Below, one piece after another: positions 4,243 through 62,528 of a stretch of DNA of 64,000 bases. A program made the position numbers and the translations under genes. The notes under the pieces are model-generated. The model did not search any database, was not told the origin of the DNA, and worked only from the letters and a program-made list of their open reading frames with translations. Source of the DNA: Pseudomonadota bacterium (lineage in GTDB: Bacteria > Pseudomonadota > Alphaproteobacteria > Caedimonadales > UBA1908); contig JAIUNT010000002.1 of the NCBI GenBank assembly GCA_020161545.1, forward strand, positions 4,980 to 68,979. The letters run 5' to 3'. The number at the start of each line of letters is the position of its first letter. The first letter of the stretch is position 1.

Positions 4243-4244
4243 AA

Positions 4245-5393: not shown

Positions 5394-5485
5394 GTTTTAT
5401 GTAACGGGCCGTCTCATTTCTTGACAAAAAGACACAAGTCGTGCATTTTTTCTTTGTGATTTATGCCGTGTTCGAGATTTAAGAA

Positions 5486-30869: not shown

Positions 30870-31697
30870 TTACGAGGCGGGTGCGTCGGGAAGGCTTGGA
30901 TAGGTTGCATTGGCGCGCCAGCCAAGGCATGTCACAATGTCAAGATGTAGTGTGAGGTCTGCTAAGTGCTTTATTGCGGCCCCATAAAAGGCGCGGTTTG
31001 GTGGGGGTGAAGCGCTTAAAGGAATCTGGGCGCCGCGCGCGCGCAGAAAGTGCTGGAGGCTTTTAGCAGTTTTAAAGGAGAGCATCACACGCTCCTCATC
31101 ACAGATGCACCCGGTAAATCCGGATCGCGTGAAAAGCGTGAGTGTTGTTTGCATGTCCATCATGGGAATAGTGCGCGCACGCGCGCCCCTGGAGGCCTCA
31201 AAATCGGCCTGAATGAGGGCGTCACGCAGCTGGGCCAAGGACGCGCCTCCCATAAATTGGGTGAGAAAAAAACCGCCCTCGCGCAGCAGTTGGAAGAGGT
31301 TAGCAAGGGCAATGGGCGGGCGCTCGCATACTTGGAGGGTGAGGCAGGAGAGAATGATGTCAAAGCTGCCTTTCTCAAAGGGGGCGTCTTCTTCCCAAAA
31401 CACAGCCCGCTGTGGCGTGCTTTGGTCAAGGGCGGCGGCGCACCAGTCCGCCGTCACAATCATGGCCTTGGGGAAAAGGCGCGTACAAAGCGCATAGAGA
31501 GCGTCTGTGCGAGCGCCGTAAATCAAAATGCGCCGGGCAAAGGTGGAAGGAAGGGAGAGATCCTCAAGACGATGTGTCAGACTTTCGTCCACGCACCCAT
31601 AGAGGGGGCAGGTGGCCGGGTCAAAGGTGTTGGCGCTTAGAGACCTTGTGGCCTTGAGGCGCCCCCTATGGAAAAGGGGGCGCGCATTATTAGACAT
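30870..31697 (-). CDS. Class I SAM-dependent methyltransferase, BioC/NDUFAF5-like
   Basis: The N-terminus LFHRGRLKATRSL...LTHRLEDL resembles the NDUFAF5-type leader. An LIYGART Rossmann-like strand and FDIILSCLTLQ...LREGGFF are present. The start overlaps the RND gene stop. Confidence 0.65.
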   Translation of the reverse strand: MSNNARPLFHRGRLKATRSLSANTFDPATCPLYGCVDESLTHRLEDLSLPSTFARRILIYGARTDALYALCTRLFPKAMIVTADWCAAALDQSTPQRAVFWEEDAPFEKGSFDIILSCLTLQVCERPPIALANLFQLLREGGFFLTQFMGGASLAQLRDALIQADFEASRGARARTIPMMDMQTTLTLFTRSGFTGCICDEERVMLSFKTAKSLQHFLRARGAQIPLSASPPPNRAFYGAAIKHLADLTLHLDIVTCLGWRANATYPSLPDAPAS

Positions 31698-34600: not shown

Positions 34601-34773
34601 ATCTCAGGGCCCGCACCTTCAAGCTGGGTCCACACGCTGATCTGAGGTTGGTCGATATTGGGATACTGACGCACTTGCAGGCGCGACCACGACACAAGGC
34701 CCAGGATCACCACCACAAGGGAAATCACTGTGGAGAGGACTGGACGACGGATACAGGTCTGGGTGAGCTTCAT
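31690..34773 (-). CDS. RND efflux pump, inner-membrane permease (AcrB/HAE1-like)
   Basis: 1027 aa. The N-terminus is MKLTQTCIRRPVLSTVISLVVVILG. It has 12-TM architecture with two large periplasmic loops, and the VVDDAIVMLENV motif. Confidence 0.95.
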   Translation of the reverse strand: MKLTQTCIRRPVLSTVISLVVVILGLVSWSRLQVRQYPNIDQPQISVWTQLEGAGPEIIETQITKILENAFGGLEGLESMTSRSEIGNSRITLTFEIGRNIDAAANDVRDKINRNNAKLPEGIVQPVIKKADADAVAFLHLALSSDRHDVRELADYASRYLEARLEAVPGVSSIDIFGGGVYEMKIILDPVKLSGYNLTPEDVAAALKKQNIEKPAGNIVTSDKELVVTTKARLLNEVDFDRVIIGEKDGYLIRVSDVGHAELNAIDRQNRVLFNGKSAVSIGITKQSVGNALTIAQDVKKILPDIRLAKGMKLDIARDRTVFMERSIEEVYETIAIATLLVILVIFAFLRSGRAVLIPLVTIPLSLIGAFALMYALGFTINILTLLALVLAIGLVVDDAIVMLENVHRYIEDGETPLRAAFKGAKEISFAIIAMTITLAAVYAPIALSPGMTGKLFTEFAITLAGAVLLSGFIALTLTPMMCGRLLVSFEEEHNVHGTWGRISARMGEILDHLDNSYAHLLRFCLEKRVWVLGMGAFIAFLGYVIGLKLPSELVPREDQGFVIARAIPPFGANLDYTDRYMEKVDKILASVPEATDKRLTMISAPGESTSMLSLKNWEDRKRSSKDIADGLREPLAEVTGLSVYPSMGGKTLVGGGDTDTPIEIVVQTNKSHKELTAAGKDVEKLIGKIPGVSNVLSDIGNLGQEYVITIDRDKAAALGVDVSTISDTLHTLIGGRPTGRFIKESKEYAVRVEIEEKFRKSAEDLTGLFIKGIKDKRDSLVPLSEIVTITKQLAPTEIGHFMGFRSMVITAKLDSGYSLGDTLTEIKRQADEILPEGISVDFSGESRRYLKESSNVYMIFGLALAFIFLVLAAQYESWRDPWIIMLSVPLSLAGGIFLLKLFGQSMNLYSQIGLVTLIGLITKHGILIVDFANKRKEDGLDRLSAVIEASKLRLRPILMTTFAMVLGAVPLAFAAGAGAESRRPIGLVIVGGMTLGTLFTLFVVPAVYTFLSRATHKPLVDVPEDV

Positions 34774-34821
34774 GGGGTATTCTCCTGTAGGGAAAGGGAG
34801 CGAGTCATGGGGGCCATGGTG

Positions 34822-36327
34822 TTAGGGCTTTGGCGCGTCCTGAGGGGCCAGCGCTGCTGGTGCTGTTTGCGTCGCGGCTCCTTCCGTTGCAGGCACGGCG
34901 GGTGCCGTCGCCTCAGGTGCCGGTGTCGCAGTCGCTCCGTCTGTTGCCGGTGCCGCCTCAGGTGCGGGCGCTGCGGCTGGGACTGCCTCAGGTGCCGGCG
35001 CTGCGTCACCAGGCGTCGTTGGGGCAGGGGCGTCCCCTTTGGCCTCAGCGGGCTTGTCCGCTGCCGGTGTTGCTGCTGCTTCCTGGGGCTTAGTTTCAGC
35101 CACCTTATCTGCAGCCGTTGGTGCGTCTGGCTTAGCTGCAGCTGGCTGTTCTTCGGCTTTGGCCTCTTCCTTGGGGGCCTCCTTGCCCTCAGACTTGTCC
35201 TTCGCTTTTTCCAGAAGCTTTTTGAAAGCTTCTTCATCAAAGGCGTAGTCTTTGCCGTTTAATGTATAACGCACGGGCGTATTGTCGCGGATCTTCATCT
35301 GGCCAACGGTCACCACATGGTCGCCGGGGTTAAGGCCGCGCACGACCTCGATGTTATCACCTTCCTGGATGCCAGTGATCACAGGCACGTGGATGGCAAG
35401 GCCTTCCACAACCTTATAGACCATTTCTTGATCGCCTTGTTTTTCAAGGGCAGCCGTCGGCACAATAAGGGTATGATCCTTGGCGCCCACCACCACATCA
35501 ACACGGGCAAAAAGACCGGGCTTTAAGAGGTTTTTCTTGTTGGGCACAACGGCGCGTGCGCCAATGCTGTGGGTCACAGGATCAACCTTAGAGTCAATGG
35601 CCTCAATCAGGCCTGGGAAAGGCGTTTTACCAAAGCCGTCCACGACCACGCTGACCTTCTGGCCTGTGCTGACATAGGGCAAATATTCGGCGGGAATACG
35701 GAAGTCCACCTTGATAGGGGTCACGTCCACAAGGGTTAGAATCTCTTTGTTGCTATCAATGTGGGAGCCCACACTCAGGTTATGGATGCCCACGATTCCC
35801 TCAAAGGGCGCGCGAATCTTTGTCTTGGCAAGATCGGACTCGGCGCGCTCAAGCTTTGCTTCTGCAATCTTGAAACCAGCTTCCGCCTCGGCAAAAGTCT
35901 TCTTGTTGGTCGTGAGTTGGTTGGCAGACAGCTTTTGGGCGCGCTCATAAGCCAGACGTGCGTTGGTCAGCTGGGCTTCGGCGCTTTGAACTTCGGCTCG
36001 GAAGGAGCGATCATCGAGGGTAAAAAGAAGTGTGCCAGGCTCAACATACTCACCTCCGCGCACATTCACCTGGGTAACAATGCCGGCAACTTCTGCACGC
36101 AGCTCCACCATTTGGTTGGCGCGCAGGGTTCCCACGGCAGTGATGGTGCGCGTCAAGGATCCCACACGGACTTCTTCAACTTCCACTGGGACAGCGTGTT
36201 GCTTTCTTTGCGCTTCATCGGACGACTTCAAAGCAAGATACCCACCATAAATAATGGCAAGGGTTGGCAGAACAATTGCAATGGCAAGAAGGGGCTTTTG
36301 TTTGATAAAAGTAAGGATTTTATCCAT
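34822..36327 (-). CDS. RND efflux periplasmic adaptor (membrane fusion protein) with a 138-aa Pro/Ala/Glu/Lys-rich tail
   Basis: It has an N-terminal TM segment, a lipoyl / alpha-hairpin / beta-barrel pattern (VELRAEVAGIVTQVNV...TKIRAPFEGIVG) and then a low-complexity C-terminus. Confidence 0.9.
   Translation of the reverse strand: MDKILTFIKQKPLLAIAIVLPTLAIIYGGYLALKSSDEAQRKQHAVPVEVEEVRVGSLTRTITAVGTLRANQMVELRAEVAGIVTQVNVRGGEYVEPGTLLFTLDDRSFRAEVQSAEAQLTNARLAYERAQKLSANQLTTNKKTFAEAEAGFKIAEAKLERAESDLAKTKIRAPFEGIVGIHNLSVGSHIDSNKEILTLVDVTPIKVDFRIPAEYLPYVSTGQKVSVVVDGFGKTPFPGLIEAIDSKVDPVTHSIGARAVVPNKKNLLKPGLFARVDVVVGAKDHTLIVPTAALEKQGDQEMVYKVVEGLAIHVPVITGIQEGDNIEVVRGLNPGDHVVTVGQMKIRDNTPVRYTLNGKDYAFDEEAFKKLLEKAKDKSEGKEAPKEEAKAEEQPAAAKPDAPTAADKVAETKPQEAAATPAADKPAEAKGDAPAPTTPGDAAPAPEAVPAAAPAPEAAPATDGATATPAPEATAPAVPATEGAATQTAPAALAPQDAPKP
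34825..35238 (-). repeat. Low-complexity coding repeat (PAPEA / KAE units)
   Basis: The DNA unit GCCTCAGGTGC(C/G)GG recurs at least three times. The region is open in several frames on both strands. Confidence 0.7.
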
Positions 36328-48316: not shown

Positions 48317-48354
48317 AGGCGCGTGGGTTGAAAATGACCTGCGCGCCTTTTTTT
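48317..48354 (+). terminator. Intrinsic terminator after mucR
   Basis: AGGCGCGTGGGT-loop-ACCTGCGCGCCT is followed by TTTTTT. Confidence 0.65.
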
Positions 48355-48458
48355 ATAGCTAACCCTCATAATTTTGGGTGGCAAGGTTCGTTGCTCGTGT
48401 AGACCTATACACGTCGCTTTCCTCACGCTCTGTCCTAAAATTAAAGTGCTTTAGCTAT
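48355..48458. repeat. Imperfect terminal inverted repeats flanking a 104-bp element (MITE-like or structured RNA)
   Basis: The left arm is ATAGCTAAccctcaTAATTTTGGG. The reverse complement of the right arm is ATAGCTAAagcacttTAATTTTAGG. The interior contains two short hairpins, GCAA-ggttcg-TTGC and CGTGTA-gaccta-TACACG. Confidence 0.35.
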
Positions 48459-48499
48459 ATTGTTTAAGTAAAACGTTAATCCTGGAATAAAGCTTTCTG

Positions 48500-49861
48500 A
48501 TGAAAAAGGTGCATATTAAAACCTACGGTTGCCAAATGAACGTGTATGACTCACAGCGCATGGCAGACCTTTTGTCCCCACTTGGTTTTGAAGAAACAGC
48601 CACGCCCGAAGATGCGGATCTTGTGATCCTCAATACCTGCCACATTCGCGAGAAGGCTTCTGAGAAGATGTATTCTGACCTTGGCCGTCTTAAACCCCAT
48701 AAGGAAGCAAGGCAAGAGGAAGGCAAGAGTCAAATCATCGCGGTGGCCGGTTGTACGGCCCAGGCGGAAGGCGCCCAAATCATGAAGCGCATGCCCCTGG
48801 TGGACGCAGTTTTTGGCCCCCAGTCCTATCATAAGCTGCCTGAAATTATCGCCCGTGCCATGCGCTCGGCCGACAAGGAAGAGAGGCGTGGGCGCGGCAT
48901 CTTGGAGGTTGATTTTCCGGCCGAGTCCAAGTTCGATAGCCTGCCAGACGCCAGGGCCCAGGGGCCAGCCGCCTTTTTGGCGATCCAGGAAGGGTGCGAT
49001 AAGTTTTGTCACTTCTGCGTTGTTCCTTACACCCGCGGCGCTGAGTTTTCACGCCCAGCCGCAGACGTTTTGAAAGAAGCCAAAGCCCTTGTGGACCAAG
49101 GGGTGAAAGAGATCACTCTTTTGGGCCAAAATGTCAACGCCTACCACGGGGATGGTCCAGGGGGAGGTACGTGGAGCTTAGGGCGCCTCATCATGGAGAT
49201 GGCCCAGCGTTTGCCGGACCTGCGTCGCTTGCGCTATATGACCTCTCACCCCAGGGACGTGGATGAGAGCCTCGTTGCAGCGCACCGTGATGTGGGCATT
49301 CTCATGCCTTATTTGCATTTGCCCGTTCAAGCAGGATCCGACAAGATCCTCAAAGCCATGAACCGTCAGCATACGCGCGATACTTACCTGCGTATTTTAG
49401 ATCAGTTTAGGAACGCGCGCCCTGATATCGCGTTTACGTCTGACTTTATTGTGGGCTATCCCGGTGAAACCGAAGAGGACTTTGAAGATACCCTGCGTAT
49501 TGTCAGGGAGGTTGGTTACGCGGCCGCTTACTCCTTTGCCTACAGCAAGCGCCCCGGCACACCTGCTGCAGCGCTGGAGCACCAAGTGGCGGAAGAGGTG
49601 AAGAAAGAACGCCTCTCAAGGCTCCAGGCCCTTCTTCAAGAGTACCAAAAAGCCTTCAATGCAAGCATGATTGGCCGCACCATAGACGTTCTTTTTGAGC
49701 GAGATGGACGTTACGAGGATCAGCTCATGGGGCGTTCGCCCTATTTGCAGTCCGTGCATGTGAAGGCGCCTAAACGCTTGATGGGGGAGATTCTTCCTGT
49801 CACAATAACAGGAGCAACACTGAGCAGTCTTTCTGGGCAGTTGGATATCATTGACGCCTAA
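48500..49861 (+). CDS. miaB: tRNA-i6A37 methylthiotransferase
   Basis: It has N-terminal [12 protein letters not shown], the radical-SAM cluster motif [11 protein letters not shown] and a C-terminal TRAM domain. Confidence 0.95.
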
Positions 49862-50889: not shown

Positions 50890-51437
50890 CAAGCCAACCT
50901 CTCATCGAAATCACCTGTGACGCCGCCGCCTGGGAGGGCCTTGATCTTGATTTGGAGGCCATGTTTACGGAGCTTGCGCAGACTGTTGGGGCGCGCCTTC
51001 TTCCCTGGGTCACCTCCCCTTGGCACGTGAGTGTGCTGCTTACAAATGACGAGGGCATTCGTCCTTTGAACGCCCAATACCGCGGGAAAGATAAAGCCAC
51101 AAACGTTCTCTCATTTGGGGTATTGGAAGTGCCTGTGACCCAGGACGCGTGGGAGGCCCTTTTCTTGCCTGGTGTGCCGTTCTTACTGGGTGACGCAGCC
51201 CTTGCCTTCGAGACGATCGTGGCAGAGGCAGACAGAGAAGAAAAAACCCTCTCCCAGCATCTTTCCCATCTCTTTGTCCATGCACTTTTGCATCTTTTAG
51301 GGTATGACCATGAGACGGAGGACGAAGCGCACGCCATGGAATCTTTGGAGGTGGAGATTTTGGCTAGCGCTCGTATTCCAAACCCTTATATACTGGACCA
51401 TATTTGTGACAATGAAAGTGAGCAAGTAAACCCATGA
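50886..51437 (+). CDS. ybeY: rRNA maturation endoribonuclease YbeY
   Basis: The zinc motif is HALLHLLGYDHETEDEAHAM. It has a GTGA overlap with phoH. Confidence 0.9.
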   Translation: MTSQPLIEITCDAAAWEGLDLDLEAMFTELAQTVGARLLPWVTSPWHVSVLLTNDEGIRPLNAQYRGKDKATNVLSFGVLEVPVTQDAWEALFLPGVPFLLGDAALAFETIVAEADREEKTLSQHLSHLFVHALLHLLGYDHETEDEAHAMESLEVEILASARIPNPYILDHICDNESEQVNP

Positions 51438-52264
51438 TGACGCAGCTGCGACGTCTTTTTCAACGACCCTCCCCCATGACGCGGCGTGAGCGCGTGCGTC
51501 AGCTTCTTGACCAAACGGAGCCTGACCCGGCGTCCCTCGACCGGGAAGAGTGTTATTTATTATCAAATATTTTAGAGCTGCATACGGTGACCGCGGAAGA
51601 GGTCATGGTCCCGCGCGCCGAGATTCAGGCCGTAGGCCGGGACGTCAGCCTTCAAGATTTTGGGGCCTTTGTGACCAAGGCGCCTTTCACGCGCCTTATA
51701 GTATACGGCGATGATCTCGATGATGTGCGTGGGTTCGTACGCGTCAAGGATATCTGTCAATTCCTTGATACGGATAAAGAATTTTCCTTGAAATCCATCA
51801 CGCGCAAGATTCTTTTTGTCTCGCCTGCGCGTCCCGTTTTGCACCTTCTTATGCAGATGCGGGTCAGCCAGACCCCCATGGCCATTGTGGTGGACGAGAT
51901 GGGCGGGGTGGACGGCCTTGTGACCTACGGCGACATCGTGCGCAAGATTGTGGGCGACATTGACGACGTTTCCTTGGAGGATACGCAACCTCAGTTGATA
52001 GAGGTATCACAGGGTGTTTACGAAGCGGACGCCCGTTTGCCCGTTGAGGCGCTGACCCAAGCTTTTGGTCTGACCCTGTCAGAGGCTGAGGAAGACGATG
52101 ATGTGGAAACCCTAGGCGGCCTTATTGTCTCGTTTTTGGGGCGCGTTCCGGACCGGTTGGAGGTGGTGACCCACCCGAGCAACTTGGAATTTGAAATCCT
52201 GGAGGTGAACCCCCGGCGTGTTCTCAAGGTGCGTATTCGTCAGGTTGCCGACAAGAAAGGTTAA
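51434..52264 (+). CDS. corC: CBS-domain HlyC/CorC family protein
   Basis: It has a tandem CBS region (VMVPRAEI..., PMAIVVDEMGGVDGLVTYGDIV) and a CorC_HlyC C-terminal domain (ETLGGLIVSFLGRVP). Confidence 0.85.
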   Translation: MMTQLRRLFQRPSPMTRRERVRQLLDQTEPDPASLDREECYLLSNILELHTVTAEEVMVPRAEIQAVGRDVSLQDFGAFVTKAPFTRLIVYGDDLDDVRGFVRVKDICQFLDTDKEFSLKSITRKILFVSPARPVLHLLMQMRVSQTPMAIVVDEMGGVDGLVTYGDIVRKIVGDIDDVSLEDTQPQLIEVSQGVYEADARLPVEALTQAFGLTLSEAEEDDDVETLGGLIVSFLGRVPDRLEVVTHPSNLEFEILEVNPRRVLKVRIRQVADKKG

Positions 52265-52269
52265 GAACA

Positions 52270-52566
52270 ATGATATGCTTTTTGAAGGTGTGTCTTGTGC
52301 TTGGGCTGACAGGCTCTGTTTTTGCCAGTGACGCTGAGGAGCGCCAGGATAGCGACGCAAAGCACGAGACGCGCAGTGCGCTCTGCTTGGTGCAAGATGA
52401 TGAGGCCCGTCGCCGTATGGAGGCGCGTCTTCATCACGCAGAAATGCTCTATAATTCTACGATTGCAACGGGCGATACATGGGCATGCTTGCCGACGCAA
52501 CAGCATGAAAACTTGTGTGTAGCACTCGACGAGACAAGGATTCTGCTGCAGGTCATCAAACAGTAG
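52270..52566 (+). CDS. Orphan small secreted protein P1
   Basis: The ATG lies 5 nt after the corC stop. The signal peptide is MICFLKVCLVLGLTGSVFA-SD. Confidence 0.45.
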   Translation: MICFLKVCLVLGLTGSVFASDAEERQDSDAKHETRSALCLVQDDEARRRMEARLHHAEMLYNSTIATGDTWACLPTQQHENLCVALDETRILLQVIKQ

Positions 52567-52617
52567 CGTTTTAAAAGCGGTTCCAGCAGACGGCTTGTAT
52601 TTTATAGGAGAGTCAAG

Positions 52618-53289
52618 ATGTTGAGTCGTTTTTCGCTTGTCTTGTTTTTTCATTTGAGTGCCTTGATTCCTTCATGTGGGGCGACATCTGAAGATCTGCT
52701 GTCAGAAATGGAAAGCATATCTGCGCGCATGCTGGCAGCTCAAAGTTTGCGTCTTGAAGAAGCGTCATGTATGTCTGACATGGGCGCTTCGCAATCTTGC
52801 GTTTTCGCGATTTCTGAAAGTGCACTTCGGGCCTACGTCTTGATGGAGAAGTATGTGGGTGGGGTGTCCCCAGATGAGGTCTCGTCCCTGGATCTCTTGA
52901 ACACTCTCTTGTGCCTTGGAGACGAGGCCTATGATGAGGTCCGCTCAATGGCGAGTGCCGCCGAGATTATGGACTTGCGCGCACGCCTGCAGAGTACCTA
53001 CAAAGTCTATGACCCGGATGTTGTTCTCGCAGTCCGTGAGGTGACCTGCGCACGCTACTATTTTGCAAGAGAGAGCACTCACATTACTGATCCTGTGGCC
53101 TATGCGCTTGGGTTCGCCCACCGTACACTTGCCCTCTTTCTTGGGGACATTTTGGATGAAGGACTTTTCCCGGGTGAGACAGGAATTGTGGGTCGGAGCT
53201 ACTTCACCCCGCGTCAACAGTCGTCTGTCTTTTTAGCAGCTGCGCCTGGGCAACTTTTATCCATTGTGCGAAGTGAGTGGAGCGAGTAA
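52618..53289 (+). CDS. Orphan secreted protein P2 (CGAxxED-leader family)
   Basis: The RBS is AGGAGAG. The leader is MLSRFSLVLFFHLSALIPSCGATSED. It is clearly paralogous to 56331-56933. Confidence 0.65.
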   Translation: MLSRFSLVLFFHLSALIPSCGATSEDLLSEMESISARMLAAQSLRLEEASCMSDMGASQSCVFAISESALRAYVLMEKYVGGVSPDEVSSLDLLNTLLCLGDEAYDEVRSMASAAEIMDLRARLQSTYKVYDPDVVLAVREVTCARYYFARESTHITDPVAYALGFAHRTLALFLGDILDEGLFPGETGIVGRSYFTPRQQSSVFLAAAPGQLLSIVRSEWSE

Positions 53290-53435
53290 GTAAACGCACC
53301 CTTTGCCGCCTCTAAGGTCCTTGTGATCTCAAAATCTTCATGTTTTTGCGCCTAAGATGTTTCTTATTCCCTGTGGCAGGCGCAGACTTCCCTGTCACTT
53401 CTTGCCCTTCTGGATATATTTAAAAAAGTTGGCAT

Positions 53436-53480
53436 ATTTTTGTCAAAAAACTTGATTTGTGAAACTCAGTATTATATATG
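53436..53480 (+). promoter_or_regulatory. Putative sigma70-type promoter with an A/T palindromic upstream element (P3)
   Basis: The sequence is ATTTTTGTCAAAAAAC-TTGATT-N17-TATATG. The upstream block is shared with 57012-57037. Confidence 0.4.
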
Positions 53481-53532
53481 CAGCTATTGTCCCATTTAAT
53501 TGTGGGGTCGCAATGGACAATTTCTGCCTGTT

Positions 53533-54663
53533 ATGTATGAGTTCTTTATGTTTAGATTTTCTTTCTTTTTCTCCTTCTCCTTTTTTGCTTTGTCGTGTGC
53601 TTATGGGTCCTCAGATTCGCCCTGGGACGGGCGCGTCCCATCAAGACAAATGTACTCTCCCACTGCGCTGCACGTTGACGCCGCGACATCTGAACGATCA
53701 GCGGCCTCAGTGGGTTGTTTTGTGCAAGACCTGGGCTTGCACGCTGTGACAAGCGGGCGTGATGCCGCACAGGCTGATTGTGTGCAGGATGTCGAGTATG
53801 AGGATTTGAGAAACGTATGCCATTTTATGGCGAGACTCGGTGGTATCGATGGATTTATGTTTACGAGCAAAGGTCAAGTTGCAATAAAAACACAAAAATG
53901 GAGAGACACAGAAATGAAACTTGATCGGTTTTTGGCCCAAGCAAATGCCTCACAAGCAAGTGATTTTCTTGTGTTAGAGGGGCAAGATCGTACCGAGAGG
54001 TTGAATTGTTTCGTTCATCTGTGCGTTAAAAATGCATTGATGGGGGATTTACATGATGAACAAGAGCATGTCATGCGTAAAATATATGATGCTTTTGACG
54101 TTGATCCTGCCTGGTGCAATGACTGGTATCATTTGTGGAAAGGGCGCTCCAATGGCCATAAACCCATTGATCACTTTATGCGCTCGCTATATGAGGCAAA
54201 TCAAAGGCTTGCATGCAATAAAAGCAAAGTTCGTGAAAAGGTTATGGCCCATGCGTGGCAAAGCTATCAGAAAACATATTTTCATGAAGACTGGCGAACT
54301 ATTGTGGCAGATGTGCTTTCCCAGACTGACTTTCCACAAGAAGTGGTCATGGCAACACTCAATGAGTTGAGTAACTCTATTTTTCCAGCCCTTTCTGTGC
54401 GTCTGGAACAAGAAAGCAGAATACATGCCCTTTGCGGGGTGCGCAGGGCTTTGCCCACAGCAGCTTCTCGTGCGCCTTGTCTTCTGCCCATCATTGCGGA
54501 GCTTTCTCCCGGTTATACCCGCGCGACCCAAGGGGCACCGTCCCATTTACCACACGTGGGTGATGTTGATGCTGTGTCAAACAATGCTCGTCAGAAACGC
54601 CCACGAGAAAGGTCGGGATGCTACTTAAGGCTGTGGGACAACTTTATGGTGAAGAGGTTGTGA
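53533..54663 (+). CDS. Orphan secreted or lipobox protein P3
   Basis: The leader is MYEFFMFRFSFFFSFSFFALSC-AYG. The C-terminus has a basic RQKRPRER patch. There is no recognisable domain. ATG 53548 is an alternative start. Confidence 0.55.
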   Translation: MYEFFMFRFSFFFSFSFFALSCAYGSSDSPWDGRVPSRQMYSPTALHVDAATSERSAASVGCFVQDLGLHAVTSGRDAAQADCVQDVEYEDLRNVCHFMARLGGIDGFMFTSKGQVAIKTQKWRDTEMKLDRFLAQANASQASDFLVLEGQDRTERLNCFVHLCVKNALMGDLHDEQEHVMRKIYDAFDVDPAWCNDWYHLWKGRSNGHKPIDHFMRSLYEANQRLACNKSKVREKVMAHAWQSYQKTYFHEDWRTIVADVLSQTDFPQEVVMATLNELSNSIFPALSVRLEQESRIHALCGVRRALPTAASRAPCLLPIIAELSPGYTRATQGAPSHLPHVGDVDAVSNNARQKRPRERSGCYLRLWDNFMVKRL

Positions 54664-55024
54664 GCAGCGCCGCACCCTCTTTGCAAACGCACCATGAAGG
54701 AGGCATGTCTGCCGCGCGCGCATCCAAAGTGGGCGATGGCACATGGGTCTGCCTTTCACGGACAGAGTATGTACAAACACCTTTCAAATACGTGCGCAGG
54801 GATTAGGCGCAGCACCGCGTTAGGTGTCTTGCGCCACGCTGCTCTTATGTGCGCCTTTCCTTGTTCGCAGGAGAGCGCACAGGGACCTTCACAATGTCTT
54901 TAATTGCTTTTGAAGAGCTGCACATTGACGCTTAGAGCAGATTTCGCTCTTTGTGAACGGGCCATCCTTTGATACAAAGCACCACTAAGGCAACCCTGAG
55001 CCCTTTTACGTATAAGGAAAAGAG

Positions 55025-55675
55025 ATGATATACAAAGCGAGAAAATATATTTGGATGGTTTGCATGATGATCACCAGTGGGCTCCATATGTGTTATGGCA
55101 GCGCGTGTGCAGACGACGATGTGCTTGCGCCGGTTGTGCGCACCTATCAGTATCACCCAGTGCGCACAAATGACGCTTTACAGCTTCTTTCAGTTCTTTT
55201 GAAGGGCGAGCGGTATTGGCAAGAAAATCAGCTGAACGCCCAGGATATACAGGACAGCCTTTCGACATTTTTTCTTTTAGGAGAGCTTCTTTTTGATCCC
55301 CAAAAAATGGTGGCAAAAGAAAAAGTGCGTCGTCACGCATCCCCGAAGGAGCAGGAAATTTTGAGCCGATTCATTGAAGGGCTTGTCCTCCATGAAGAGG
55401 CGCGCATGACCATTTTTCAAAACATTGTCTCGCCCCCTTGTGCGGGAAGAGCATTTGATATGCCAGCTCGATTAAGAAAGGCCTCTTTAAATTTTGATGA
55501 GGTGACGTTGTTCTTGGTCGATGCGGTATTATGCGCGGGGACGAATGCGGTGCGCGACGCCTATACTTCAAAAAAGGCCACGACTCCAGAAGAGGGCCCG
55601 CTCTATCTTTTGAAGGCTCTTCGCGCGTCACACGCGACCATCGTGGGCGCCATCGCTTTGGGGGCACAGTCCTAA
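55025..55675 (+). CDS. Orphan secreted protein P4
   Basis: The RBS is AAGGAAAAGAG. The hydrophobic leader ends CYGSACA-DD. It weakly resembles the central region of P2/P5/P6 (NAQDIQDSL...ASPKEQEILSRF). Confidence 0.5.
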   Translation: MIYKARKYIWMVCMMITSGLHMCYGSACADDDVLAPVVRTYQYHPVRTNDALQLLSVLLKGERYWQENQLNAQDIQDSLSTFFLLGELLFDPQKMVAKEKVRRHASPKEQEILSRFIEGLVLHEEARMTIFQNIVSPPCAGRAFDMPARLRKASLNFDEVTLFLVDAVLCAGTNAVRDAYTSKKATTPEEGPLYLLKALRASHATIVGAIALGAQS

Positions 55676-55779
55676 ATGCGCACACACACCTGGGTCTATG
55701 TGGGTGTGATCTCTTTTTAACACATTGGCTTTTTTCATATTTTGTGAAAAGATCGCATGATTTTTTAAGGAGTGTCCCC

Positions 55780-56295
55780 ATGCATTGTCGTCTCATTTTC
55801 TCGTCCCTTTTGCTTGTTTCATTCTTAAGCCAGCCATGCGGCGCAGCATTTGAAGAAGACTTGTCTTGCGCCGCGCCACCCCGCGCGCAAGCAGAAACCT
55901 TACCGAAATTAGACCCTCGAGTTGAAAGTGCCCTTCGCTCCTGGACCATTATGAGAAAGTGGAACGTCGGGTGGCGTAAGATGGGGCTTTCTCCCCAGGA
56001 TGTGATGATGGCTGTGTTATGGCCGGGAGATGCGAGTTATGATGATATGCGCAAAAAGGCGCCCCAAGAAGATGTGGACAACCTGCGACAACGTTTGGTG
56101 GGGGGCGCAGAGCCCGTGGACAACGTTGTGACGCTCCTCACCCAGATTGCGCGCACATGTGTGGCGCAGAGCCGATCACCCTACCTTGATGAGGTGACGT
56201 CATTTGTGTGTTTAGCCGAGACAAAGGGTCAGTTGAGCATGTTTCTTGCGCCCGATTATGAGGCTGATCGCTGTGTGGCTGAGGCGCCGTACTGA
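55780..56295 (+). CDS. Orphan secreted protein P5 (CGAxxED-leader family)
   Basis: The RBS is TAAGGAG. The leader is MHCRLIFSSLLLVSFLSQPCGAAFEED. The shared block is LSPQDVMMAVL...ASYDDMRKKAPQEDVDNLRQRL. I chose an internal start rather than the track's 55531. Confidence 0.6.
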   Translation: MHCRLIFSSLLLVSFLSQPCGAAFEEDLSCAAPPRAQAETLPKLDPRVESALRSWTIMRKWNVGWRKMGLSPQDVMMAVLWPGDASYDDMRKKAPQEDVDNLRQRLVGGAEPVDNVVTLLTQIARTCVAQSRSPYLDEVTSFVCLAETKGQLSMFLAPDYEADRCVAEAPY

Positions 56296-56330
56296 GTTTG
56301 GTGGTGGGGTAACTGAAAAAGGGAGTCAAT

Positions 56331-56933
56331 ATGTTAAACCGTTTTACGTGCGCGTCTTTGGTTCTGTTTTCTGTTTTGGCGGCGCCTTGCGGGGCGTCGG
56401 CGGAGGACCCCTTTCAAGGCACAAAAAACACGTGCGCGAACGCGTCGACACACCACAGTTTTTATATCTGCGAAGAGGCGCTGCGCGCCTACGTCATGCT
56501 AGAGAAGTGCGAGGGGGGCGTGTGTCCGGAGGCCATCTCTCCCCAAGATTTGCTGAACACAGTGGTCAGTCATAATGACAAAGCCTATGACGGGGTTCGC
56601 GCTTTGGCGAGCGCTGAGGAGGTTGAGGATTTGCGCGCACGTCTCCAAAGCGCCTACAAAGCCGGTGATCCAGATATCGTGTGTGCGATGCTCGGTGAGG
56701 CACAAGCACGCCATCAGTTTGCAAGCAGGTGGCCTCATTTTGGCGACCCAGCTGCCTATGCGCTCCGGTGCGCTCACCAGACGCTTAAGCTCTTTCTTAA
56801 TGACAGGATAGAGAAGACATTTTCGCTAGGTAGGGATGAGCCTGTGGGCCGCACTTCTTTCGCGTCTTCGCAAGAGGCGTTCACGCTTTCATGTACAAAT
56901 CAGCTTTTGTCTATTGTGAGAGAACGTCTGTAG
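56331..56933 (+). CDS. Orphan secreted protein P6 (CGAxxED-leader family)
   Basis: The leader is MLNRFTCASLVLFSVLAAPCGASAED. The core ALRAYVMLEKCEGGVCPEAISPQDLLNTV...AYDGVRALASAEEVEDLRARLQSAYKAGDPDIV matches P2. Confidence 0.65.
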   Translation: MLNRFTCASLVLFSVLAAPCGASAEDPFQGTKNTCANASTHHSFYICEEALRAYVMLEKCEGGVCPEAISPQDLLNTVVSHNDKAYDGVRALASAEEVEDLRARLQSAYKAGDPDIVCAMLGEAQARHQFASRWPHFGDPAAYALRCAHQTLKLFLNDRIEKTFSLGRDEPVGRTSFASSQEAFTLSCTNQLLSIVRERL

Positions 56934-57011
56934 CATGGCTTTGGCACGGTGACCAGCACATCCTGCTTGGTACATAGGCCATCAGAATCAATTGCACGCT
57001 TGAGAATATTA

Positions 57012-57037
57012 ATTTTTGACAAAAAAGATTGATATTT
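57012..57037 (+). promoter_or_regulatory. A/T palindromic element plus TTGATA (-35-like) upstream of P7
   Basis: ATTTTTGACAAAAAAGATTGATATT matches the P3 upstream block ATTTTTGTCAAAAAACTTGATTT at about 20 of 24 positions. The -10 element is unclear. Confidence 0.3.
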
Positions 57038-57094
57038 CTTGCGCGAACTACCACTAAAATACCAAGGGCTGAGCTGTGATTTTTGGTGTTTTGT

Positions 57095-57847
57095 ATGAGA
57101 ATGTTCCTTTTTGGATGTTTGCTTTTTGCCTCTGTTTCTGGATACGCCAGTGATGGGGATGCATCTTGGTGGCAGCTCCTCAACGCTATGTACGGTGCGC
57201 CGTCTTCTCCCATGCAGGAGCTGTGTATTCTTACGCCAGAAGATTTGCCTGACGTTGAGATGCCAATGGTGCGGGAGAATACCCTGTCTCCCATTCATGA
57301 ACGCGTGCCCATGGCTGACCTGTTTGAGGGGAGTTTGATCGAGGCGGACTTGCGATTTTTTCACATGCAAGGGGAGGGAGAGCGCGCTGACACTGACAGC
57401 GGTTGCGCCCAGGCACCTAGCGTTTTGCCACAGGTGAGGCCCTGGGCCCTGCCAGAAGGATGCGAAAGCGTGACAAACATGATCATGGCTGTGGCGCCCA
57501 CGGGGGATACCTTCGCGCCCCAACGCACCAAGAAAAGAGCAGGGCCTTTGGCGCCTCGCCGCCCACTGCCGTACCCCCATTTGAGGAGCGCGCTGTCGCA
57601 GCTCTTTGACAAAGTCGTGCCAGCTACTTTAAGGTGTGACCCAATGCCCCTCTTGGAAGGGGCTAGCCAATCCGCCGATCCGGCGCAAGTCGTACAAAGC
57701 GCGTCGGCAGATCTGGGATCAAATATGACCGGTCATCCCATGGAAGAGGGCAGCGTGCTCAAAAATGCCGTTGCCCAAATTTTTGGGTCCCAGAACAGTG
57801 CGGTGCCAAGATCAATAGATCCTTCCTTTTTGGTGTGGCAAGACTAA
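57095..57847 (+). CDS. Orphan secreted protein P7
   Basis: The leader is MRMFLFGCLLFASVSGYA-SD. It has a Pro-rich basic patch TKKRAGPLAPRRPLPYP and no recognisable domain. Confidence 0.5.
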   Translation: MRMFLFGCLLFASVSGYASDGDASWWQLLNAMYGAPSSPMQELCILTPEDLPDVEMPMVRENTLSPIHERVPMADLFEGSLIEADLRFFHMQGEGERADTDSGCAQAPSVLPQVRPWALPEGCESVTNMIMAVAPTGDTFAPQRTKKRAGPLAPRRPLPYPHLRSALSQLFDKVVPATLRCDPMPLLEGASQSADPAQVVQSASADLGSNMTGHPMEEGSVLKNAVAQIFGSQNSAVPRSIDPSFLVWQD

Positions 57848-57872
57848 TATTTAGTTCGCACATAATACTCAA

Positions 57873-57887
57873 TTAACGTTATTTTAA
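57873..57887. promoter_or_regulatory. CtrA-type box TTAA-N7-TTAA upstream of folE
   Basis: The site is TTAAcgttattTTAA, 48 nt upstream of ATG 57935 and next to TTGACA (57889-57894). Confidence 0.45.
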
Positions 57888-57934
57888 TTTGACAATTGTA
57901 ATATGAAATATTGGCGTTCTTTTTGAGATATGAT

Positions 57935-58498
57935 ATGGCTGATTTAGAGTTGCATCTTCGTGATATCATTAAGCATATGGGTGATGATCCTGACCGCGAT
58001 GGCCTGAAGAAAACACTTCAACGCGTCATACAGGCGCTCTCGGACTTGACCAGCGGATACAACGAAAACCTCGATGAGGTCATTAATGGGGCGATTTTTG
58101 AAAGCCCCAATACAGATATGGTTGTCTTGCGGCACATAGAGTTTTACTCCATGTGCGAGCATCATATGCTTCCTTTTTTCGGCACGTGCAGCATTGCGTA
58201 CTTTCCCAGAGGTAAGGTGCTGGGTCTGTCAAAACTTGCACGGGTTGTGGATCACTTTGCCCATCGTCTTCAGATCCAGGAAACTCTCACAGTCCAAATC
58301 GGCGAAGCCATCGGGCACTATTTGAACACACGGGATGTGGCCGTGACCATTGACGCACAGCACATGTGTCTCATGATGCGCGGGGTCAACAAACAGTCTT
58401 CCGTCACAACGACGTCAAGTTTCATGGGCGTTTTTAAAGAGCATGACACGGTTCGGGGTGAGTTCTTGCAACATCTGCACACATGGAGCGCGCGATGA
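57935..58498 (+). CDS. folE: GTP cyclohydrolase I (type 1)
   Basis: The sequence is [49 protein letters not shown]. Confidence 0.92.
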
Positions 58499-59199
58499 CA
58501 GGGATTGCCATCATTACTGGGGCTAGCCGGGGCATTGGCCGCGCAACCGCGCAAGTTTTTTTGGAAAAAGACTGGCGTGTTGTGAGTCTGTCAAGGAGCC
58601 CATGCGACGTGCCAGGCGTCTTGAATATTGCCATTGATTTTCTCGAGTGTGATTGGCAGGACCTTGCCCACGCCCACATCAGGCAAGCGGTCCAAGGGCC
58701 CCAGCGGATCTGTCTTGTGCACAACGCCGCTATTTCACAGGCAGACACCATCCAAGACCTCGATATTGAAACGTTGGGGAGAAATCTACGCGTGGGGCTG
58801 TTTGCGCCCCTCCTCCTCAATCAAATGCTTCTGCCACTTATGGGGCAGGGATCGTCTATTATTTACATCGGCTCGACCTTGTCTGAAAAGGCGGTTCCCG
58901 GATCGGCCTCCTATGTCATGACAAAGCACGCCGTAGCCGGCGCCATGAAGGCAACCTGTCAGGATTTGGGGGAGAGCCCGAATGTGCATACGTGTTGCCT
59001 TTGCCCAGGGTTTACCCATACACACATGCTTGAGGATATTTTCAGTGAAGAAGGGCAGATGGAAGCTCTTTTTGATCGCGTTTCTCAGCGCCGGCTCATC
59101 AGGCCAGAGGAAATTGGCGCGCTGGTGCACTTCTGCGCCGAAAGTCCTGTGGTCAACGGCTCTGTGATTCATGCCAATTTAGGGCAACTTGAGCACTAG
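58495..59199 (+). CDS. Short-chain dehydrogenase/reductase, candidate pterin reductase by context
   Basis: Classical SDR motifs are present: [11 protein letters not shown] and YVMTKHA (YxxxK). It has an ATGA overlap with the folE stop. Confidence 0.8.
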
Positions 59200-59268
59200 G
59201 CGCGCTTTTTGGCACGCTGTGCGGTCATGGTCATTGTATCTCAAATACCTATGAATAAATCAATTAAA

Positions 59269-59298
59269 TTGACATAAGCGTGCGATGTAATGAATAAT
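59269..59298 (+). promoter_or_regulatory. Putative sigma70-type promoter for P8
   Basis: The sequence is TTGACA-N18-AATAAT. This argues against ATG 59290 as the start codon. Confidence 0.4.
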
Positions 59299-59316
59299 CA
59301 TTTTTTTTACTGGGTT

Positions 59317-60348
59317 ATGGTTATGCGACGTTTTCTGGCAAAGTTTTCTTTTTATTTTTTGTGGAGCGTCTTTCTCTCTCATGTTGTTCTTGCGTCTTCC
59401 CATGGGGAAGAGTTGGTGGAGATGATCCGGCCGACCTCTATCCATGATCTTGCATTTTTAGATGAGGCCGGCCGCAAGGAGTCATACGAGGACACGTTTC
59501 ATGAGATGCAGGCCATGTTTGGCGAAAAAGACACACTCTTTGGTGTTTATCTCCTTAAAGTCAATACGGTCCCCGTTGCGGCCCACGCCCTGTGCGCCCA
59601 TAACCATAACGGTTATCTTGTGGCAGAAGGAATGACCGATGTGCTTGAGAGCCACCAAGGCCGTCGTTACGGAACCATTTTGCGTATGGAGGCCGCAAAA
59701 CTGGCACAAGACGCCATTGAATCTAAAAGGATATTCATGATGAATGAATGCCCAATGACCCTGGATTACCTTTATTCCACCAATGAATGGTTATGGGGCG
59801 AGAATCATCCGTCCCTTAAATCAAGTCTGAATGCGGGATATGGTGTGGCTTGTGTCTCAAGTCATCTGGGTTTGGCGCATCTGCTATTTCCCAAAAACGA
59901 AGCCATGTGGCCGGATGAGCGGGTGACTCATCTCATGGATGCTTCTGCCTTGATTTATAATGCGTATCAAAAAGGGCGCTCCTTAGCCTATGACGCCCAG
60001 GGTCATGAAGGGATCCCATTTGATCAAAATACGGAAATTGTGGATCACTTTAGGTATGTTATAAATGATCTAAATCTTGATAAGGATCATGATGCCATAT
60101 CTTTGCTCAGTTGTTTGCACTTTCTTTTGACAAAGGGTGAGGGTTTGGGCGCAAGGAGAGTGGTTGAAGAGTACTGCAGCGCGCTAGGCGATGCGCGCGC
60201 CCATCAAATGGTGTGCGTGCTGCGCGAGCAAGACGGGCCTGAGTCTAGGTTTCCTGGTGAACTTACAAGATATTTTTCAGTCCGCATGCCAAATGCTTTA
60301 AACTGCTCTGGGCTTTTGCCTTTGCTTGAGCGCGAAAGCAAGGCGTGA
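59317..60348 (+). CDS. Orphan secreted protein P8 with an N-terminal GNAT-like segment
   Basis: The leader is M(V)MRRFLAKFSFYFLWSVFLSHVVLA-SS. YLVAEGMTDVLESHQGRRYGTILRMEAAKLAQ resembles GNAT motif A (Q/R-x-x-G-x-G/A). The C-terminal half is unknown. Confidence 0.5.
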   Translation: MVMRRFLAKFSFYFLWSVFLSHVVLASSHGEELVEMIRPTSIHDLAFLDEAGRKESYEDTFHEMQAMFGEKDTLFGVYLLKVNTVPVAAHALCAHNHNGYLVAEGMTDVLESHQGRRYGTILRMEAAKLAQDAIESKRIFMMNECPMTLDYLYSTNEWLWGENHPSLKSSLNAGYGVACVSSHLGLAHLLFPKNEAMWPDERVTHLMDASALIYNAYQKGRSLAYDAQGHEGIPFDQNTEIVDHFRYVINDLNLDKDHDAISLLSCLHFLLTKGEGLGARRVVEEYCSALGDARAHQMVCVLREQDGPESRFPGELTRYFSVRMPNALNCSGLLPLLERESKA

Positions 60349-60383
60349 GGGTATTTGCAAAAGGTCTGTAATGGCGGGCGCGT

Positions 60384-60848
60384 TTATGTGCGCACAATCT
60401 CGACGATGTTCTTGTCTGTCTCCCATAGCGTGAGTTTGTGCAGACCGTTTCCTGGAATATGGGGGTCTAGCTCTTGCCAGAAGGCAAGGGCAAGGTTTTC
60501 AGTCGTTGGGATGACGCCTTTTAAAAACGGCACGTCGTGGTTAAGGTGATAGTGATCGACCTTGGAGACAATCACGTCTTCTAAGATACGCTTGAGATCC
60601 GTGAGGTTGATGATCATGCCCGTTTGGGGGTCGATTGTGCCTTCAACGCTGACCTCAAGCTGGTAGTTATGCCCATGGCCATTTGTTCTTGCGCACTTGC
60701 CATAAACGGCCTCGTTCCAAGCCTTGTCATAATCAGGATTATACAAGTGGTGAGAAGCGCAAAAGGAGGCGCGCCTTTTAAGTCTGATGCGGGTGTGGCC
60801 TGTGTTCATGGATTGAGGACGCAAGTTTACCTTAATTGAGACTAACAT
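60384..60848 (-). CDS. 6-pyruvoyl-tetrahydropterin synthase / QueD family (PTPS-I-like)
   Basis: FCASHHLYNP...YGKCARTNGHGHNYQLEVSVEGTIDPQTGMIINLTDLK...VDHYHLNHDVPFL...TTENLA closely follows the PTPS pattern FSASHRL...GKCNNPNGHGHNY...TGMVMNLTDLK. The start is uncertain, either 60848 or 60809. Confidence 0.85.
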   Translation of the reverse strand: MLVSIKVNLRPQSMNTGHTRIRLKRRASFCASHHLYNPDYDKAWNEAVYGKCARTNGHGHNYQLEVSVEGTIDPQTGMIINLTDLKRILEDVIVSKVDHYHLNHDVPFLKGVIPTTENLALAFWQELDPHIPGNGLHKLTLWETDKNIVEIVRT

Positions 60849-60965
60849 GGCGCTCAAAGACTTGCCACGATGTTTGATGGAACGCTCCTTTGACCCGAGT
60901 TGCATTGCACTTGCCAAAAAGCTAGGATCTCTCCCAAGTTCATTTGGTTATGTGCGAGACCCCCC

Positions 60966-62528
60966 ATGGGTATAAACACTTTTTTTGAAAAGAGCCCCCG
61001 GGCTTACGGCGGAGCAGCACTCCTTGGGGCGCTGTGTGCGCTGACCCAGGCGCCGGTGTCTTTCTCACCGCTCATTTTTCTTGTCTTTCCAGGGCTTTTT
61101 CTGTTGCAGAAGTCACGCGCCCCCCGGGTGCGTTTGTGGATCGGTTTTTTCTTTGGGCTAACCTACTTTGTGGGGACCCTATACTGGATTGCTGTGGCTT
61201 TTCATGTGGACATGGCCAGTTTTTGGTGGCTGACCCCCTTCACGGTTTTAGGCCTCCCTGCGTTCCTTGCGCTTTTCTTTGTGGGCGTGCCCCTTTGGGT
61301 GTACGGGGAGGCGAGTACGCGCCTTTTTCAAAGGCGAGAGAGCTATCTTCTCATGGCGGCGCTGCTTGCCGGGGGTGAGTGGCTGCGTGGTCATGTGCTG
61401 ACGGGCTTTCCCTGGGCCCTGTGGGGATACACCTGGGCACACAACGACGCACTGACCCAGCTTTTTTCCCTTGTGGGGGCGTATGGTATTTCCCTTCTCA
61501 CCTTGCTGATTGCGGGCGTGGGGCTTCTTTTTCCCCTGCGCGACCTGCGTCGCCGCGCAGCCTTTGGATGTGTGTGCCTTCTGGCCGTCGGCGGATACTT
61601 TTGGGGCGCCCAGCGACTCGCCCACTCGGGCGTGTCCTACGTGACGGGCGTGGGCCTTCGCCTTGTGCAGCCATGTATTTCCCAGAACCTAAAATGGGAT
61701 CCCGGGCACCAGCGCGCCATTTTTGAGCGTCTCGAGACCATGAGTCGCCTTTCCCTTGAAAAAGACGTGACCCATATTATTTGGCCTGAATCCGCGCTGC
61801 CCTTTTTTGCGGCCGAGAGCGAGAGGGCGCTGGCGCGGCTTGCAGGCGTTGTGCCGCAGGAAGGCGGCGCGGTCTTGTTTGGTGTGCCAAGGCGGTCGCC
61901 TGAGGGGCAGCCCGAGCAGTTGTGGACAAGCCTTATGGCGGTGGACAAAAACGCGCGCGTGAGTGCCACCTATGACAAGCATCACCTTGTCCCATTTGGG
62001 GAGTACGTGCCTGGGCGCGCGCTCTTGCCCTCATTTGTGAAGAAGGTCACGGCCGGGGCCATGGATTACAGCGCGGGGCAGGGGCCCCGTTTTGTGAAGA
62101 TACCGAATCTACCGTCTTTTTCGCCTCTGATTTGCTATGAGGTCATTTTCCCCGGCGCTGTGGTGGATCAGGAAAAACGTCCCGCCTGGATGCTTAATAT
62201 CACAAATGATGCGTGGTACGGACGCACCTCGGGTCCTTTCCAGCATTTTGAGATGGCGCGTGTGCGCGCAGTGGAGGAGGGTCTTCCCTTGGTGCGCGTG
62301 GCCAACAACGGGATTTCAGCGGTGATTGACCCCTTGGGCAGATCCGAGGTGCGCTTAGAGTTGGATGAAGAAGGGGTACTGGACGCGCGCCTTCCTAAGG
62401 CATTTGCGCCCACCCTTTACGGGCGCACGGGGGACACACTCTTTGTCTTGCTCTTGTTGGTAGCCGCACTCCTTGGTATGGTGAATCCACACTTAGAAAT
62501 AATAAGAAGAAAAAGGACACGCCCATGA
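60966..62528 (+). CDS. lnt: Apolipoprotein N-acyltransferase
   Basis: It has multiple N-terminal TM segments and a C-terminal CN-hydrolase domain (IIWPESALPF...KHHLVPFGEYVP...PLICYEVIFP...ITNDAWYG). Confidence 0.9.
   Translation: MGINTFFEKSPRAYGGAALLGALCALTQAPVSFSPLIFLVFPGLFLLQKSRAPRVRLWIGFFFGLTYFVGTLYWIAVAFHVDMASFWWLTPFTVLGLPAFLALFFVGVPLWVYGEASTRLFQRRESYLLMAALLAGGEWLRGHVLTGFPWALWGYTWAHNDALTQLFSLVGAYGISLLTLLIAGVGLLFPLRDLRRRAAFGCVCLLAVGGYFWGAQRLAHSGVSYVTGVGLRLVQPCISQNLKWDPGHQRAIFERLETMSRLSLEKDVTHIIWPESALPFFAAESERALARLAGVVPQEGGAVLFGVPRRSPEGQPEQLWTSLMAVDKNARVSATYDKHHLVPFGEYVPGRALLPSFVKKVTAGAMDYSAGQGPRFVKIPNLPSFSPLICYEVIFPGAVVDQEKRPAWMLNITNDAWYGRTSGPFQHFEMARVRAVEEGLPLVRVANNGISAVIDPLGRSEVRLELDEEGVLDARLPKAFAPTLYGRTGDTLFVLLLLVAALLGMVNPHLEIIRRKRTRP

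Follow-up and report, generated by a model that had tools for sequence, protein, structure and literature searches.

Why are corC and lnt, which adjoin one another in other Alphaproteobacteria, held about 8.7 kb apart (corC stop at 52264, lnt ATG at 60966) in the 64,000-nt stretch studied here, and what does the DNA between them encode? The stretch, hereafter the window, comes from a Pseudomonadota bacterium of the Caedimonadales (UBA1908; contig JAIUNT010000002.1, positions 4,980 to 68,979), an alphaproteobacterium mainly of wastewater. The intervening island carries eight open reading frames (ORFs) with signal-peptide-like starts, P1 to P8, together with genes for three enzymes, folE (GTP cyclohydrolase I), a short-chain dehydrogenase/reductase (SDR) and a 6-pyruvoyl-tetrahydropterin synthase (PTPS). 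On balance the island is probably a composite derived insertion, in which an array of exported proteins (module A, Sec-exported ORFans) would have been combined with a pterin module (module B, folE-SDR plus a PTPS of type II, PTPS-II).

Relatives of the locus were collected by a search for CorC homologues, followed by comparison of gene context. In seven other alphaproteobacterial loci, with corC 44-73% identical, lnt stands directly after corC and usually overlaps it; E. coli has a ybeZYX-lnt operon (bioRxiv 10.1101/2023.03.20.533420). The two genes share an ATGA overlap in L008/L009 and L010 (corC 71% and 69% identical) and in L013 (73%), lnt follows corC directly in L019 (52%) and in the complete genome of Gimibacter soli (CP116805; 44%), and a TARA marine contig (L011; 53%) has corC, a gap of 153 nt and then lnt. 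The longer string rpmI-rplT-pheST-lepA-GNAT-mucR-miaB-phoH-ybeY-corC-lnt-S9 is common to the window, L008/L009, L010 and L013. In the window, the ORF map with Pfam and NCBIfam matches gives lepA, a GNAT gene, mucR, miaB (48500-49861), phoH, ybeY and corC/ybeX (51434-52264, +; Pfam CorC_HlyC and CBS) on the left of the island, and lnt (60966-62528, +; Pfam LNT_N and CN_hydrolase) and then the S9 peptidase gene on the right. The initial annotation had described an accessory, lineage-specific insertion at a conserved junction, and this comparison bears it out: in the related and distant alphaproteobacterial loci corC leads directly to lnt and the island is absent.

Alignment of the junctions with L008, L010 and L013 gave two clean breakpoints, the left at ~52240/52241, after corC "VRIR", and the right at ~60980/60981, before lnt "FFEK". 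The last seven codons of corC (QVADKKG, 52241-52261) are not common to the relatives and form a new tail, and the first five codons of lnt (MGINT) are likewise new, MGINTFFEK of the window aligning with M..SFFEK of the relatives. In place of some 29 nt in the relatives, the window has about 8.74 kb (roughly 52241-60980). This insertion is derived and does not extend beyond the genus or a slightly wider clade.

Three assemblies of the window's own species, made independently (L001-L003; 99.6-100% identity), show this arrangement too. In the metagenome-assembled genome (MAG) of a sister species, PNJU01000001.1 (L004), all 11 genes recur in unchanged order; nucleotide identity is 88.8% across the island versus ~93% in flanks and core genes. 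Because all of these carry the island, misassembly is ruled out. The sister MAG bears the name Ca. Puniceispirillum sp. WM.011, a genus label that may be loose, the closest marine (TARA) CorC being 53% identical and the source being wastewater/sludge, with a G+C content of ~54%. Two features were noted upstream of the island in these comparisons. About 100 nt of the mucR-miaB spacer (48354-48460; near 7028 in L004) do not align with the sister MAG, both flanks being 93% identical. Between the window and L001, 46 of the 60 differences over 14.9 kb fall in miaB, 42 of these synonymous, and the sequence from phoH to the S9 peptidase gene is otherwise almost identical; the miaB cluster resembles a tract recombined in from a diverged strain.

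The G+C content of the island is 50.1%, versus 54.5% for the rest of the window, which makes it the lowest 8.7-kb stretch in the 64 kb, and the AT-rich segments pointed out earlier fall to 41-45%. Island genes also have codon-usage scores below those of core genes. According to the windowed profile and codon usage, the lower G+C described in the initial annotation is thus real but modest. No tRNA was detected in the 64-kb window, no direct or inverted repeats above chance flank the island ends, no Rfam match lies in the island, none of the alternative island ORFs on either strand has a Pfam match, and no integrase, recombinase or transposase domain was found, so that the scans agree with the original remark that no insertion machinery is evident. 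A phage or defence origin of the island was also considered; PHROGs and PADLOC gave nothing useful.

The insertion is expected to have altered transcription of the split operon. The PTPS gene (60384-60917, -) is convergent with P8 and divergent from lnt, and since it directly precedes lnt but runs on the opposite strand, we infer that transcripts begun at the corC operon no longer reach lnt, which must have a promoter of its own; this would lie in the divergent region 60810/60918-60965. The sister species has almost the same N-terminal ~40 aa in PTPS, and this segment aligns to no PTPS structure; translation may begin at an internal Met, e.g. residue 37, in which case the divergent region would measure ~156 nt. 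At the other end, the ATG of P1 (52270-52566, +; 98 aa) stands 5 nt past the corC stop. The read-through from corC into P1 that had been proposed is plausible, given this 5-nt gap and the lack of a convincing terminator, although P1 itself has weak coding support and its coding status is uncertain. The best sigma-70-like promoter match in the island, a consensus match only (TTGACA-18-AATAAT, 11/12; 59269-59298, +), lies just upstream of P8.

Each of P1-P8 opens with a hydrophobic stretch, after which come a small-x-small (AXA-like) site and a mature N-terminus of acidic character, and the products of folE, the SDR gene and the PTPS gene have none of these features. No match to the exported orphans was obtained from Pfam, NCBIfam, PHROGs, PADLOC or PDB sequences, and these results, with the protein searches and the N-termini, sustain their description as true ORFans with signal-peptide-like starts. 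The gene coordinates and identities first assigned also stand in the ORF map and Pfam results, with minor changes to two starts: P5 most likely begins at 55780 (171 aa) and not at 55531, and P8 most likely at 59323.

Three of the exported proteins, P2 (52618-53289, +; 223 aa), P5 (55780-56295, +; 171 aa) and P6 (56331-56933, +; 200 aa), are paralogous (blastp P2 to P6, 1e-49; P5 to P6, 1e-13), and a family hidden Markov model (HMM) built without P4 scores P2 at 3.5e-68 and P5 at 2.6e-61. An exhaustive HMMER search of 1.84e9 representative proteins found 10 clusters of this family in total, and a profile search of 5.8e9 proteins found seven matches, all from its own lineage; P4 was part of the query alignment in both searches. 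A Joint Genome Institute (JGI) metagenome scan with a narrower family alignment returned only the same species. The mature proteins are ~150-190 aa long, acidic and Cys-containing, and share the N-terminal pattern ...A then [S/T]xE[D/E]. Because the Cys that precedes the cleavage site is not invariant and follows a Pro, there is no lipobox, which points to cleavage by signal peptidase I and not to a lipoprotein. The predicted fold of the family is probably all-alpha.

Further loci show how the family is arranged. In L012 (corC 86% identical) two members follow immediately after corC, in tandem. The contig L016, from a lineage of intermediate relatedness, carries a family member, a 38-aa ORF, lnt (70% identical to the window) and the S9 peptidase gene (82%), with no PTPS, P8, SDR or folE gene adjoining lnt; four tandem members are present in L017, which comes from that sample. 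Two other members (P0133 and P0135) lie among small genes of the same strand without a Pfam match. The family appears always to occur in tandem arrays, and to do so at the corC-lnt junction wherever the flanks are visible. Within the island, P2 occupies a hypervariable slot. Identity between P2 and the sister-species protein of this slot is only 48%, versus 74-85% for P4-P6 (P5, 85%), the pair has a dS of 1.23 versus ~0.35 for neighbouring genes, and the sister copy is closer to P6-type sequences; for these reasons the sequences indicate replacement or gene conversion in this slot and not orthologous divergence. The family is undescribed, grows by tandem duplication and diverges quickly.

The other exported ORFans, P1, P3, P4, P7 and P8, are confined to the window species and its sister species and are unrelated to the family, except that P4 (55025-55675, +; 216 aa) may be a very distant relative. 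P1, P3, P7 and P8 gave no match to the family HMM, and the visual impression that P1 is a truncated member was discarded on this ground; its copy in the sister species has 82 aa and a 16-aa indel. P3 (53557-54663, +) comprises ~368 aa from MYEFF..., in an ORF that opens at 53500, and differs from its sister orthologue (a 470-511-aa ORF) by a 142-nt indel and two 15-nt in-frame indels (window 54380-54830; L004 12760-13340). The conserved C-terminal tail of P3 is out of frame in the window species, where it persists as a 62-aa ORF (54618-54806, +) matching sister P3 ...GDGTWV.LSR.EY.QTPFK.VRRD, and the frameshift is present in every same-species assembly that covers the region. P7 (57083-57847, +; 254 aa) is proline-rich (10% Pro) and probably disordered. 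P8 (59323-60348, +; 341 aa) was found only in its own lineage among the 5.8e9 proteins searched. Its assignment to GNAT was rejected, the Pfam Acetyltransf_1 match (E=0.016) reaching 15.9 bits versus a cutoff of 20.7 and the NCBIfam and PDB profile searches returning no such match (none at E<=10), and an AlphaFold2 model of P8 was discarded (predicted local distance difference test, pLDDT, 35).

What might such proteins do? A Sec signal delivers proteins to the periplasm, and the products of module A would, after cleavage by signal peptidase I, act there or outside the cell. We tentatively propose a role in antagonistic biotic interactions, the likeliest form being a protective, immunity-like or binding-protein array and not a set of injected effectors. 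Features that fit antagonism are Sec export, small size, a probably helical fold, several cysteines, tandem copies, fast divergence, slot replacement and apparent expression, and the context is a dense biofilm/sludge habitat and the presence in the window of a VgrG gene (951-3596), the spike of a type VI secretion system (T6SS).

The initial annotation had gone further and suggested a host-interaction or effector island. On this reading P1-P8 would be secreted effectors of virulence or symbiosis, with a eukaryotic host or grazing protists as their target. The restriction of the ORFans to one lineage, their fast evolution and export signals, a proline-rich and probably disordered P7 and the atypical composition of the island would all suit this idea, and activated sludge is generally rich in protists. 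Nevertheless, the sequence comes mostly from wastewater and activated sludge and from some metagenomes of soil, plastic surfaces and groundwater, no sample among the runs listed is host-labelled, Pfam finds no eukaryote-like domain among the island proteins, and no secretion genes lie in or adjoin the island. The Sec signal is the only export signal present, and to our knowledge it is not a feature of effectors translocated by type III, type IV or type VI systems; since Sec is not the route by which their substrates are recognized, only type II or type V secretion or vesicles would fit. Because Sec export argues against injection and nothing indicates a host, we rank effectors below an immunity-like array and regard them as unlikely.

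Several other genes of the window may be recorded here in their own right. The region 951-7057 has the look of a vgrG-linked cargo cluster, the VgrG gene (Phage_GPD, Phage_base_V and Gp5_C) being followed by three ORFs, namely a 217-aa ORF without a match, a DUF4424 protein (4239-5393) and a 523-aa ORF without a Pfam match (5486-7057). Envelope or interaction genes elsewhere include a patatin-like phospholipase (16977-18104, -), a 1000-aa protein with a polysaccharide pyruvyl-transferase domain (27771-30773, -) and an AcrB/HlyD-type resistance-nodulation-division (RND) efflux pair (31690-36327, -).

Selection on the island genes was estimated as omega, the Nei-Gojobori ratio of non-synonymous to synonymous divergence (dN/dS) between the window and the sister MAG, with 95% intervals from a codon bootstrap. 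Omega is 0.02 for corC and 0.11 for ybeY, and 0.04, 0.06 and 0.11 for folE, PTPS and SDR, i.e. the three enzymes evolve like core genes, and the orphans are about 3-10 times faster at non-synonymous sites. The individual values are 0.38 (0.21-0.57) for P2, 0.32 (0.24-0.44) for P3, 0.29 (0.18-0.48) for P4, 0.26 (0.14-0.46) for P5, 0.46 (0.32-0.65) for P6, 0.47 (0.27-0.83) for P7 and 0.31 (0.19-0.48) for P8. Since these range over 0.26-0.47 and every bootstrap interval lies below 1, P2-P8 are, judged by their substitutions, coding but weakly constrained. By the same measure P1, at 0.76 (0.31-2.45), is indistinguishable from neutral.

It is quite improbable, on this evidence, that the island is mostly decaying, horizontally acquired DNA whose ORFs are annotation noise and in which only the pterin genes function. 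Such decay would account for the neutral pattern of P1, the frameshift in P3, the low codon adaptation, and the comparison with L001, which shows seven differences in the island, each of them non-synonymous (P3 and P8 with three apiece, folE with one). It does not account for omega significantly below 1 in P2-P8, for reading frames and lengths of P4-P8 that are kept at ~11% nucleotide divergence, for signal peptides kept in all eight orphans, or for the persistence of the family as arrays in at least three lineages. Expression also speaks against decay. Among Logan contigs of the wastewater run X23, whose RNA-Seq label is itself uncertain, five match the 56 kb examined at >=99% identity, and four of these lie on P5/P6 (56296-56542, P6 starting at 56331), on P7 (57533-57718, depth 16.6) and, as two contigs covering 59910-60209, on P8. 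The fifth (6497-6762, depth 14.2) is on the 523-aa ORFan downstream of VgrG, and none of the five is on miaB to corC, lnt or the S9 peptidase gene. Four of five contigs in 15% of the sequence corresponds to a binomial estimate of ~0.003 if contigs were spread uniformly, and this handful of short contigs from one run favours expression of P6-P8. A bolder and more doubtful extension of the antagonism proposal is that the corC-lnt junction is a long-lived hotspot with a hypervariable tandem library of a new Sec-exported family, whose members would confer immunity or act as decoys in the periplasm, or be secreted against grazers, with expression above the housekeeping level in situ. If true, it would represent a new immunity or effector family maintained without mobile-element machinery.

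The remaining island genes form a different kind of unit. folE (57911-58498, +; the start may be ATG 57935) matches its Pfam model at 3e-68 and the equivalog TIGR00063 with 220.8 bits, versus a cutoff of 181.6. The SDR gene (58483/58495-59199, +; Pfam adh_short) overlaps the end of folE, and with a start at 58495 the overlap is ATGA. Generic FabG and other SDR models match it best, all of them below cutoffs. P7 precedes this pair of genes; P8 follows it and stands before the PTPS gene. A riboswitch or other non-coding RNA upstream of folE was rejected, no Rfam match being found there at E<=1.

The PTPS sequence ...GKCARTNGHGHNY... carries CARTNGHGH, i.e. the PTPS-II signature CxxxxxHGH, as distinct from CxxxHGH of QueD (PTPS-I) and ExxHGH of PTPS-III (PMC5041015). 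Its best PDB matches are rat PTPS (1B66, 3.4e-38) and human PTPS (5e-36). QueD was rejected, as the residue four positions before HGH is Arg, the TIGR03367 score is 68.5 versus a cutoff of 89.25, and QueD structures match at only ~1e-10; PTPS-III, the folate bypass of FolB, was rejected because Thr stands three positions before HGH and there is no ExxHGH. Of the label "PTPS/QueD" given at first, the PTPS half therefore stands, specified as PTPS-II (biopterin-type), and the QueD half falls. Module B consists of folE translationally coupled to the SDR gene, plus the convergent PTPS-II gene, and is under strong purifying selection. Gene context suggests that the SDR is a pterin/sepiapterin-type (pyruvoyl-tetrahydropterin) reductase. 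It is fairly likely that the module makes a reduced pterin like tetrahydrobiopterin (BH4) in the cytoplasm; the chain would run from 7,8-dihydroneopterin triphosphate through 6-pyruvoyl-tetrahydropterin to the BH4-like product. The BH4 route is predicted in only ~50 bacterial genomes (PMC5041015), which makes it unusual for this organism.

Could both modules belong to one system, a pterin-dependent envelope system in which the exported proteins bind or use the reduced pterin made by folE, SDR and PTPS? A logic of this kind is seen in Agrobacterium, where PruR is a periplasmic pterin-binding protein and PruA an SDR pteridine reductase. The interleaving of the modules (P7 immediately upstream of folE, P8 between SDR and PTPS) and the order kept in the sister species would suit it, but it is very improbable, because the L016 family member abuts lnt with no pterin genes alongside and selection differs sharply (omega 0.04-0.11 versus 0.26-0.47), and Pfam finds no recognizable pterin- or molybdopterin-binding domain.

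The composite insertion that we prefer would have begun with insertion and amplification of the exported family at the corC-lnt junction, the pterin genes and other ORFans probably being later arrivals. Because the L016 member lies directly upstream of lnt without adjoining pterin genes, the most parsimonious order puts the array here first and the pterin genes after it. The single 8.6-kb unit described in the initial annotation is accordingly right as a contiguous insert and wrong as a single unit: the L016 member without adjacent pterin genes and the differing evolutionary rates mark it as composite.

Some observations weigh against this account, either against its history or against the roles given to its parts. 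The order of arrival is a parsimony argument from a 5.4-kb L016 contig, and pterin genes could lie elsewhere in that array. The place of P4 in the family is supported only with P4 in the query alignment, an HMM without P4-type sequences giving E ~1 and hhalign a probability of 2%. The AlphaFold2 model of P6, built from an 8-sequence alignment, is all-alpha with a pLDDT of 49 and was discarded, and a Foldseek search of the PDB with it gave only matches at E>0.3 and TM<0.3. The exported proteins are homologous to no known family of immunity, effector, phage or defence proteins, the island encodes neither toxin nor effector, and ~50 kb separate it from the VgrG gene; the function given to the exported proteins is a proposal held with low confidence. 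The RNA support comes down to a few short Logan contigs from one run with an uncertain label. As for module B, no sepiapterin-reductase model or structure is among the top matches of the SDR, and the final pterin product is deduced from context only.

The locus is a clean, datable case of accessory DNA invading an essential, conserved operon junction without recognizable mobility genes, and the insertion rewrites both gene ends and would force lnt onto its own promoter. It also defines a small, undescribed family of exported proteins, whose tandem amplification and slot replacement suggest conflict-driven evolution, and documents a PTPS/BH4-like module of animal type, rare in bacteria, in an uncultured alphaproteobacterium of wastewater. 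What the locus offers is a candidate new family and a hotspot with clear bounds; by itself it opens no long-standing question.

Among known systems, periplasmic immunity arrays of the T6SS resemble module A in their small signal-peptide proteins, tandem paralogues, fast divergence and slot replacement, and a VgrG gene is present in the organism. Orphan and poly-immunity clusters are reportedly a T6SS concept, and Rap/Tai4 of Serratia are all-alpha periplasmic immunity paralogues. Nevertheless, neither sequence nor structure links the island to a known immunity family, no effector, vgrG, PAAR or Rhs gene adjoins it, and we do not claim membership in this class. With classical genomic islands it shares atypical composition, lineage-restricted presence and accessory cargo, but it lacks an integrase or transposase, a tRNA and flanking repeats, sits in an operon junction and replaces ~29 nt. 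The BH4 pathway of animals and Chlorobium proceeds through GTP cyclohydrolase I, PTPS-II and sepiapterin reductase. It is also known from Synechococcus (PMC5041015), and the island matches it in FolE, PTPS-II and a folE-coupled reductase, although this reductase is a generic SDR and no BH4-dependent enzyme is encoded in the island. The closest framework remains the ybeZ(phoH)-ybeY-ybeX(corC)-lnt operon of E. coli and other Proteobacteria, with the same flanking genes in the same order (miaB-phoH-ybeY-corC...lnt); here, in contrast, it is split by 8.7 kb, a PTPS gene on the opposite strand uncouples lnt, and the C-terminus of corC and the N-terminus of lnt have been rewritten.

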